Part shown: piece by piece, positions 34,629 to 35,131 of the stretch
Layout: each line of letters starts with the position of its first letter
Numbering within the stretch: the first letter of the stretch is position 1
IMG/VR virus record: IMGVR_UViG_2718217789_000006
From: a virus
Taxonomy: Duplodnaviria; Heunggongvirae; Uroviricota; Caudoviricetes
Strand: one strand, 5' to 3'
Length of the DNA stretch: 64,000 bases
Position numbers and translations under genes: made by a program
The notes under the pieces: generated by a model
Told to the model about the DNA's origin: nothing
The model's input: the letters and a program-made list of their open reading frames with translations, nothing else
Databases searched by the model: none

Positions 34629-34877
34629 TATTGCAGAATTAACCGGGTATCAGGTACGCCCCGAAAATTTTAAATGTCTCACAATTCAGACGGTTGACAG
34701 TTGTCTGGTTTGCGGGGAGTTTGTTAAAAGAAACTGGCATGGTGAATCCCCCTGAGCGGAGGGGCATATCAGCGCAGGTGTTTCTACTCTATCCTTTCTG
34801 TGCGGGTTCAGGTGCTGATACTGAACTCACCGGGAGGCACCCGGCACCATGCATATGGTTAACAGACACGTAGCGAA

Positions 34878-34903
34878 GCCCCTCTCCGGAGGGGCTTTTT
34901 TTA
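34878..34903 (+). terminator. Rho-independent terminator upstream of nanS-p
   Basis: GCCCCTCTCCGGAGGGGC hairpin followed by TTTTTTT; followed by a second hairpin with an A-run upstream (terminator in the opposite orientation). Confidence 0.55.
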
Positions 34904-35131
34904 TGGGCAAAAAAAGCCCGCGCTGGGAGACGCGGGCGGCAAGGAATAAACAACAAAACGTGAAGTAATATTTCAGCTGGCGAATAATACCCCATGGTAA
35001 TCACTCTGCGCAACTGCGCGGCCTTTTTCGAATTGCGGGCTGTAAGTCTCCCTTCTGCCATTGTCCTGTAACTTCCGAACTTCAGCCCGCTCTTTATCTG
35101 ATTCAGTACACTATCCCGGCCGGGAGGATTC

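Follow-up and report, generated by a model that had tools for sequence, protein, structure and literature searches.

The 503-bp gap (positions 34629 to 35131) between a DNA methylase open reading frame (ORF) and a nanS-p-type esterase gene in IMG/VR virus record IMGVR_UViG_2718217789_000006 holds two convergent small RNA (sRNA) genes, a plus-strand member of the STnc100 family and a minus-strand gene of the EcOnc08/21/42 type. The window referred to throughout is the whole stretch of this record that was analyzed, 64,000 nucleotides (nt). We consider it very probable that the segment is a convergent sRNA dyad at the right-hand border of the moron slot of a lambdoid late operon, supplying both trans-acting regulators and terminators. 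The dyad as such is already known; specific to this allele are the linker of the plus-strand RNA, its variable H2 insert, the distal promoter region of the minus-strand RNA, and the methylase moron. A preliminary description, made from the sequence alone, had marked 34640 to 34950 as structured noncoding DNA and had offered an sRNA, a bidirectional terminator insulating the cargo gene, or a remnant of the tRNA/stx slot as its identity. A full-length STnc100 match and a near-identical copy of the EcOnc08/21/42 RNA bear out the first of these. The interval itself was drawn too short, cutting off the minus-strand gene, which reaches ∼34978 in its short form or ∼35091 in its long form.

Convergent sRNAs between a moron coding sequence and a conserved ORF were described by Tree et al. 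(2014) in the lambdoid prophages Sp3, 4, 5, 9, 10, 11, 15, and 17 of Sakai. The pair in Sp4 consists of EcOnc05 on the plus strand with EcOnc08 and EcOnc21 on the minus strand, and a single Northern probe detects these last two together with EcOnc42. In phage 933W, this module comes after stx2B.

Two opposed terminators and an internal stem

All three hairpins named in the preliminary description are present and can be read directly from the sequence, and two of them are back-to-back terminators. Hairpin 2 (GAAGCCCCTCTCCGGAGGGGCTTT followed by T7; 34875 to 34902, plus strand) has a 10-bp stem and a U7 run, folds alone at −19.5 kcal/mol (z = −4.58), and is included in the Rfam STnc100 match as the Rho-independent terminator of the plus-strand sRNA. 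Hairpin 3 (an A7 run at 34909 to 34915, then GCCCGCGC-TGGGAG-ACGCGGGC at 34916 to 34937; entire, GCCCGCGCTGGGAGACGCGGGC) is the Rho-independent terminator of the minus-strand sRNA; read on that strand, its 8-bp stem (34937 to 34930 with 34923 to 34916) is followed by a U7 run (34915 to 34909), and it folds alone at −16.9 kcal/mol (z = −3.93). Both have the GC-rich stem-loop and U-run of an intrinsic terminator, as predicted from sequence, and a consensus scan called them as terminators on opposite strands, 6 nt apart. Eight terminator-like sites lie in 32900 to 35300, versus 2.6 ± 1.4 in shuffles. The pair resembles the bidirectional intrinsic terminators found between convergent genes in having two GC-rich hairpins with opposed U-runs within 65 bp; unlike those, it comprises two separate hairpins and not one shared palindrome, each belonging to its own conserved sRNA gene.

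Hairpin 1 (CCCCCTGAGCGGAGGGG; 34748 to 34764, plus strand) does not share this role but is an internal stem of the plus-strand RNA. Folded alone, it is no better than chance (−8.8 kcal/mol; z = −0.85), and in the covariance-model match it is the nearly invariant stem H1. It had been called related to hairpin 2; the two are indeed similar here, but the likeness is not conserved across the family, because the terminators of 933W and of PasD, a related RNA of enteropathogenic Escherichia coli (EPEC), differ and H1 is constant. An antiterminator pairing hairpin 1 with the terminator was rejected, since the terminators vary in 933W and PasD while H1 stays fixed, and no covariation links them.

The plus-strand RNA is a full-length STnc100 homolog

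The covariance-model scan that had been proposed as a check matched Rfam STnc100 (RF02076) on the plus strand at 34708 to 34908, over the full length of the model (positions 1 to 206 of 206), with 148.1 bits against a gathering score of 47 (E = 8e-34); the match also exceeds the gathering threshold when the whole window is scanned. The family is matched right behind stx2B in 933W (207.7 bits) and behind tRNA genes in Sakai Sp4 (138 bits). Its late-region context, after Q and a moron, is the same in all three: in the window, Q (PF03589), the methylase, and the SASA/DUF6645 gene flank the match.

The minimum-free-energy fold of 34736 to 34908 (−73 kcal/mol; z = −3.34) has helices that agree with the Rfam consensus: GCAUGGUG/CACCAUGC forms a closing helix that encloses several hairpins, and a 24-nt unpaired linker and the terminator follow. 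Fold and consensus together define a structured 5′ domain of ∼117 nt (34737 to 34853), here called the scaffold, which is closed by P1 (34737-44/34845-52) and contains H1 (34749-53/34760-64; hairpin 1), H3 (34804-11/34821-28), and H4 (34830-34/34840-44). The linker AUAUGGUUAACAGACACGUAGCGA (34853 to 34876) is single stranded in the fold and varies more within the family than any other part, with at least 12 variants on one scaffold; the allele of the window was seen in 3 IMG/VR loci. The scaffold, and often the terminator as well, stays constant across the family while the linker varies. The linker occupies the position of the PasD seed UGUGAG, which was defined by target motifs from ligation- and sequencing-based RNA interaction mapping (RIL-seq). 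Because of this position, its unpaired state, and its highest variability, the linker is most likely the seed of the plus-strand RNA.

A putative sigma-70 promoter lies at 34694 to 34730 on the plus strand, with −35 candidates TTGACA (34694 to 34699) and TTGTCT (34701 to 34706), a −10 element TTAAAA (34724 to 34729) or TAAAAG (34725 to 34730), and a TG at 34722 to 34723. A strict consensus promoter scan made no call at 34694 to 34730. The arrangement TTGnnT-17/18-T(T/A)AAAA recurs 5 to 8 nt before P1 in 34 of 47 distinct upstream sequences, nonhomologous contexts included. EPEC PasD2 has an identical promoter layout, and its 5′ end, from RNA sequencing (RNA-seq) and Northern blotting, aligns to window position ∼34737, the first base of P1. 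On this sequence evidence, the plus-strand RNA most likely starts at ∼34737 from its own promoter; the predicted length of ∼169 nt fits PasD (172 to 173 nt) and EcOnc06 (∼177 nt). Inspection of the sequence upstream of the sRNA gave no acceptable match to a sigma-54 promoter (TGGCAC-N5-TTGC), and this alternative was rejected.

Published work connects the STnc100 family with EcOnc27 (Sp5, an Stx2 phage), sRNA103 of EDL933, EcOnc05 (Sp4), EcOnc06, EcOnc04, and EcOnc13, with PasD1 and PasD2 of EPEC forming a related family. EcOnc05, EcOnc27, and the minus-strand EcOnc08 are supported by Hfq cross-linking and analysis of cDNA (Hfq-CRAC) and by Northern blotting, and PasD1/2 are supported by RIL-seq and Northern blotting. 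EDL933 carries 11 STnc100 copies, with RNA-seq reads on all of them and a Northern blot for one. The window RNA shares with STnc100, EcOnc05, EcOnc27, and sRNA103 the helices, the terminator, the full-length match, and the slot downstream of a moron and upstream of nanS-p, and its scaffold differs from that of EcOnc05 at few positions only. In contrast, its linker differs from those of Sp4, 933W, and PasD, its variable H2 insert differs as well, and a DNA methylase stands upstream where Sp4 and 933W have tRNAs or stx. PasD1 and PasD2 of EPEC E2348/69 (homolog EcOnc13) share the scaffold plan (P1, H1, pseudoknot, and H3), the promoter layout, and the location upstream of a sialate esterase gene, but they have a shortened H4/P1 end (AGCGGGAGGCGCCAUGC). 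Under R1, a covariance model built from the collected scaffold sequences, the window reaches 110.9 bits and PasD2 49.6 bits. We do not assign the window RNA to PasD: its linker is without UGUGAG, and its terminator and H4 differ.

Polymorphisms downstream of stx2B and shortly before the 933W copy of the sRNA (+90 T↔C and +103 delT) have been reported among the best genomic predictors of hemolytic-uremic syndrome (HUS) (PMC12711010). With an inferred numbering offset, they appear to map in 933W (L001) to ∼2548 and 2559 to 2561, that is, to the T of the TGn extended −10 motif and to the spacer between the −10 element and the first scaffold base. They thus appear to fall in the predicted promoter and not in the RNA body.

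The minus-strand RNA is of the EcOnc08/21/42 type

The minus-strand gene ends at 34909 and is predicted in two forms. The short form (∼70 nt; 34909 to 34978) would start from a promoter with TTGCGC at 35013 to 35008, an N18 spacer, and TATTAT at 34989 to 34984; both hexamers are invariant in 19 variants, and the putative start site is placed from them. Its extent coincides with the Hfq-CRAC peak of EcOnc08 in Sakai Sp4, mapped by alignment. The long form (∼182 nt; 34909 to 35091) is placed by homology with E2348C_1409.E2348C_1408.IGR, a 182-nt minus-strand sRNA that Pearl Mizrahi et al. (2021) identified in EPEC by RIL-seq, with EcOnc08/21/42 as its stated homologs. The EPEC coordinates (1444797 to 1444978; Table S6, PMC8550237) were mapped to the window by alignment, and the two 3′ ends coincide at 34909. 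The long form is antisense to the nanS-p 5′ leader; its start at ∼35091 lies 41 nt before the nanS-p ATG, short of the ribosome-binding site (RBS).

The last ∼75 nt, terminator included, are nearly invariant over the 19 distinct variants and nearly identical to the corresponding part of EcOnc08/21/42 (Sakai Sp4 and Sp15) and of the EPEC RNA. The shared part consists of TTGCGC-N18-TATTAT, a G/U-rich stretch, CCUUGCC, and the terminator, in the same orientation and at the same position relative to nanS-p. Unlike those RNAs, the window reads TCAGAT and not TAAAAT in the distal 5′ part (35093 to 35110) and has a one-base insertion at ∼35047. The Sakai Northern probe for EcOnc08/21/42 agrees with window 34984 to 35018 at 29 of 35 positions.

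The heptamer CCUUGCC (34938 to 34944, minus strand) lies just 5′ of the terminator and after the G/U-rich stretch GUUUUGUUGUUUAUU. It is kept in 18 of the 19 distinct variants, the remaining one reading CCUUGCU, and it has the complementarity expected of a seed: it pairs with GGCAAGG/GGCAGGG, the motif common to the RIL-seq targets of the EPEC homolog, among them the cfa 5′ untranslated region (UTR; 767 chimeras), the dppA 5′ UTR, tir, emrA, and pcm. As separate observations, the G/U-rich stretch (34945 to 34962, minus strand) resembles the GcvB R1 seed, and the dppA 5′ UTR, one of the RIL-seq partners, is a classic GcvB target. The terminator folds significantly by itself, but the whole-RNA fold of the long form is not significant (z = −1.59), and a single global structure for the 184-nt minus-strand RNA was rejected on that value. 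Minus-strand matches to OmrA-B (26 bits) and anti-hemB (25 bits), both below their gathering scores, were rejected as terminator driven.

The anti-sRNAs AsxR, AgvB, and EcOnc03 fill the same slot in the same orientation, lying on the minus strand of the dyad opposite an STnc100-type RNA, and are likewise short, terminator-proximal regulators. However, the conserved 42-nt 3′ part of AsxR/AgvB (AGUAUCUCAUGC..GCCCGAACCCAYUCGGGC) is replaced by unrelated sequence in the window, and neither AsxR (RF02703) nor AgvB (RF02702) matched at E ≤ 1 in 31000 to 38500, whereas 933W, the positive control, gave 88.1 and 40.9 bits. Since 933W has AsxR/AgvB in the slot and the window has no match, the partner in the window belongs to a different family in the same slot.

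Proposed roles of the dyad

Because of the experiments on homologs, both RNAs most likely act in trans in the lysogen, in association with Hfq, and regulate host and island mRNAs by base pairing. In cis, the terminators would stop Q-independent transcription leaving the methylase gene and would keep antisense transcription out of it. During lytic growth, RNA polymerase that comes from pR′ and is modified by Q would pass the terminators and transcribe nanS-p and the lysis genes. Insulation and Q read-through are proposed on the grounds of established lambda biology and the sequence. The insulating bidirectional terminator of the preliminary description survives in the structure of hairpins 2 and 3, as a presumed secondary role and not as the identity of the element.

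Several points weigh against this account. Expression, Hfq binding, and target motifs come from homologs and not from this locus; the linker allele of the window has no known target, and the targets of EcOnc08/21/42 in enterohemorrhagic E. coli (EHEC) are listed as unknown. The predicted ∼169 nt misfits the Northern sizes of EcOnc05, the near-identical Sp4 copy (∼222 nt), and of EcOnc27 (∼235/247 nt), so that the true 5′ end may be ∼55 to 60 nt upstream of the predicted one, or processing of a longer transcript may give rise to the RNA. PasD RNA levels barely shift in Δhfq by RNA-seq, which means that the Hfq dependence of the plus-strand family is not clear-cut. For the minus-strand RNA, the window has TCAGAT in place of the −10-like TAAAAT that precedes the long form in Sp4, EPEC PP6, and 933W, and the sizes determined for the RNA are ∼271 nt in EHEC but 182 nt in EPEC.

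The size discrepancy also speaks for a 3′ UTR origin, in which the plus-strand RNA would have no promoter of its own and would be processed from the moron transcript (methylase here and stx2AB in 933W): Northern species of 222 to 247 nt exceed the promoter-based prediction, the sRNA terminator is the sole terminator available to the upstream gene, and the EDL933 copies have RNA-seq reads whatever their context. Yet the TTGnnT-17/18-T(T/A)AAAA element keeps a fixed distance from P1 despite unrelated upstream sequence, PasD 5′ ends fall on the first base of P1, the Sp4 module is expressed behind tRNA genes that have their own terminator, and RpoD chromatin immunoprecipitation-exonuclease (ChIP-exo) signal has been reported at the Salmonella STnc100 copies. 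We regard this origin as unlikely for the plus-strand RNA in general and as possible for the longer Northern species. Somewhat less likely again is a purely cis-acting bidirectional terminator or insulator of the cargo slot with short RNAs as by-products devoid of trans function. Two near-ideal intrinsic terminators do stand tail to tail with 6 nt between them, the border of the moron slot is where the module is always found, and no EcOnc05/08 target in EHEC has been validated; but a terminator pair takes up ∼70 bp, and conservation and covariation extend over a 117-nt pseudoknotted domain and over ∼75 nearly invariant nucleotides of the minus-strand RNA, promoter hexamers and seed among them, and homologs associate with Hfq and form specific chimeras in RIL-seq that have a target motif in common.

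It is quite improbable that the structured domain is a cis-regulatory leader of nanS-p, riboswitch-like or a processing element. A divergent copy of the domain, without terminator, does occur directly before ORFs (dicB, terB, and small kil-region ORFs; see below), and RNAs of the PasD/EcOnc04 type end only ∼85 nt before nanS-p; here, however, the nanS-p start codon is ∼230 nt away from the domain, beyond a strong terminator and a convergent gene, and the domain is also present where nanS-p does not follow: 67 of 120 sampled copies have neither partner RNA nor nanS-p leader. We give very little weight to small proteins encoded at 34694 to 34873 (plus strand; 59 amino acids [aa]), 34849 to 34968 (plus; 39 aa), or 34789 to 35133 (minus; 114 aa). 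These ORFs exist mechanically, and ribosome footprints have been recorded on some EDL933 STnc100 copies, with coverage reaching 3.2, but variation tracks base pairing and not codons, with compensatory changes in P1, H3, and the pseudoknot; scaffolds measure 109, 117, 120, 124, 125, 127, 128, and 130 nt, differences that are not multiples of three; and the Prokaryotic Genome Annotation Pipeline (PGAP) annotates none of them. The remaining idea, a decayed remnant of the tRNA or stx genes of the Stx-phage slot, has a probability close to nil. Its appeal is that the module follows ileZ-argN-argO in Sp4 and tRNAs plus stx2AB in 933W; against it, those phages have the intact module in addition to their tRNAs and stx and not in place of them, and homology to 933W begins ∼40 nt past the stx2B stop. 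No tRNA had been evident in the preliminary description, and ARAGORN likewise found 0 in the whole window, with no Rfam tRNA match at E ≤ 1 in 31000 to 38500; as controls, 933W and Sp4 yielded 3 tRNAs each.

A covariation-supported pseudoknot in the scaffold

Conservation of the scaffold was measured on 120 IMG/VR loci from viral contigs with ATGGTGAATCCCCCTGNGNGGAGGGG (24 specified bases), compared with 933W, Sp4, and PasD2. A 16-nt pattern, GCATGGTGAATCCYCC, run against genome contigs gave only chance matches in unrelated phyla and was replaced by the 24-base pattern. In every sequence class compared, the strand after H1 is complementary to the H3 loop; in the window, UAUCAGCGC (34767-75) pairs with GUGCUGAUA (34812-20) on the plus strand. 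The paired strands differ from class to class: AUCAGC:GCUGAU, CUGGUG:CACCAG or CACCGG, AAUGAC:GUCAUU, ACUGGAUA:UAUCCAGU, CUGGCU:AGCCAG, CCAGUU:GACUGG, and, in PasD2, AAUGAUC:GAUCAUU.

Counting the pseudoknot on an alignment from MAFFT or fitted to the model was abandoned, because the two main classes are one column out of register there (65.9% paired), and the best helix of each sequence was instead tested without an alignment, with dealt and shuffled loops as controls. The pseudoknot reaches at least 6 bp in 56 of 58 distinct sequences, with 27 distinct helices, and shuffled loops reach 6 bp in ∼5% of trials. The mean best helix is 7.07 bp, versus 5.41 ± 0.15 bp (maximum, 5.86; 500 trials) when loops are dealt among the sequences. 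Over the same 58 sequences, P1 is 97% and H3 93.8% paired; both partners have changed in 6 of the 8 P1 pairs and in all 8 H3 pairs. Pairing overall stands at 91.3% of cells versus 85.2% in shuffles, 22 pairs being changed on both sides; the whole-structure covariation score is 0.203 versus 0.119, and none of 500 shuffles scored as high.

The Rfam consensus line leaves the H3 loop unpaired, the pseudoknot is not mentioned in the 2026 Pas preprint, and we found no description in the searchable literature, though one may exist. The covariation-supported pseudoknot in the STnc100/PasD 5′ domain may therefore be new to the literature. Some IMG/VR prophage contigs carry tandem STnc100-type scaffolds, each copy with its own pseudoknot sequence: locus L129 has four within ∼1 kb (2325 to 3350, minus strand), arrays also occur in L131, L137, L143, L156, L181, and L190, and several loci have two copies ∼470 to 480 nt apart.

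A divergent class of the domain upstream of dicB

The window contains a second, divergent copy of the domain at 21392 to 21527 on the minus strand, with 32.8 bits for model R1 and 31.2 bits, below threshold, for Rfam STnc100. Linker and terminator are both missing from this copy, which is flanked by a DicF-like RNA and by dicB (Pfam DicB, 6e-37); the dicB start codon follows 27 nt after its end. Elements of this class also occur between dicF and dicB in the Qin prophage of E. coli K-12 (L246 1956 to 2082; NC_000913 1649455 to 1649581), 36 nt upstream of terB in phage P7 (L247 1500 to 1618), and upstream of small ORFs beside kil in a Klebsiella phage (L248 1201 to 1335). Compensatory changes were found in P1 (AUGCGGUG/CACUGCAU, UUGCGGUG/CACCGCAA, and AUGCAGUG/CACUGCAU), in H3 (GCGUUAA/UUAACGU versus GAUACCAG/CUGGUAUC), and in H4 (CCUGG/CCAGG versus CCGGG/CCCGG), and the pseudoknot of the class is CAGUUAA:UUAACUG.

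The dicB-leader class may be new. These findings suggest, speculatively, that the domain has a role of its own, such as 5′ protection, processing, or binding. We put forward tentatively, at somewhat less than even chances, that it is an undescribed pseudoknotted module with its own function, reused by temperate enterobacterial phages as an sRNA scaffold with exchangeable linkers and a terminator and as an operon-internal leader; such a module might form a 5′ cap that resists nucleases, signal processing by an RNase, or bind a protein or ligand. The adjacent DicF-like RNA (UUUUCUGGUGAUUCGGCGGAAACGGAUAUCCGCCCUUUUU; 21582 to 21543, minus strand) has the DicF 5′ seed and a terminator and is ∼14 nt shorter than K-12 DicF; the Rfam DicF model did not report it at E ≤ 5.

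Locus, spread, and nearby elements

The gap belongs to a lambdoid prophage's late operon, in which the methylase fills the moron slot. Upstream of the gap lie the Q antiterminator gene (32174 to 32995), a small ORF, and the N6/N4 DNA methylase ORF (N6_N4; 33570 to 34628); downstream lie the nanS-p-type esterase gene (35132 to 37078; DUF1737, SASA, and DUF6645 domains) and then DUF1378, holin, and lysozyme genes. RefSeq/PGAP has zero annotation within the 503-bp gap. The intergenic region is matched in 2,409 of 5,426 complete E. coli genomes; 63 records are at least 99% identical to it, and among the matches listed, the best are mostly bovine O157:H7 isolates. The comparison with Stx phages that had been suggested found the hairpins conserved, and the gap matches 353 phage records, for the most part Stx-converting phages. 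In 933W, the homologous stretch sits between stx2B and L0105 (the nanS-p homolog) and spans the sRNA module and nanS-p leader only. The Sakai Sp4 gap (1179669 to 1180157) is almost identical to the window from ∼34672 to 35131, and its module comes directly after the tRNA genes.

The nanS-p 5′ leader (35000 to 35131, plus strand; RBS GGGAGG at 35120 to 35125 and ATG at 35132) is nearly identical in the window, Sakai Sp4, EPEC PP6, and 933W, and with the Stx1 phages included, it is the most conserved part of the gap. It contains a plus-strand hairpin, CTGCGCAACTGCGCGG followed by CCTTTTT (35006 to 35021; −9.1 kcal/mol; z = −2.3), which overlaps the −35 element of the minus-strand promoter.

Further elements were seen nearby. 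An Esr41-like sRNA candidate (37080 to 37156, minus strand) has the UUUUCUCCAU motif, a strong terminator, and an upstream TTGACA at ∼37195; it reaches 30.9 bits, where the gathering score is 102, converges on the nanS-p 3′ end, and occupies the position of PasA (EPEC) and EcOnc52 (Sakai), sharing the promoter region but not the body. Two plus-strand terminator-like hairpins stand just downstream of Q (CCCGCCGCCTGGCGGG plus T6 at 33078 to 33100 and GCCTTCAGTCCTGAAGGC plus T6 at 33406 to 33430), of which the former is where tR′, the site of StxS sRNA production in Stx phages, is expected. An Rfam match to the sok antitoxin (28169 to 28349, plus strand; 61 bits against a gathering score of 59) suggests a hok/sok-type module.

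Significance of the dyad

The region can with confidence be annotated as two known prophage sRNA genes. In Stx-type phages, dyads of this kind move along with the cargo slot, and the RNAs that make them up rewire the regulation of the host in EHEC and EPEC: AsxR and AgvB have been characterized, and the EPEC minus-strand homolog forms chimeras with cfa, dppA, and tir. If confirmed, the pseudoknot and the dicB-leader class would provide a structural handle on a very common, functionally uncharacterized phage RNA.

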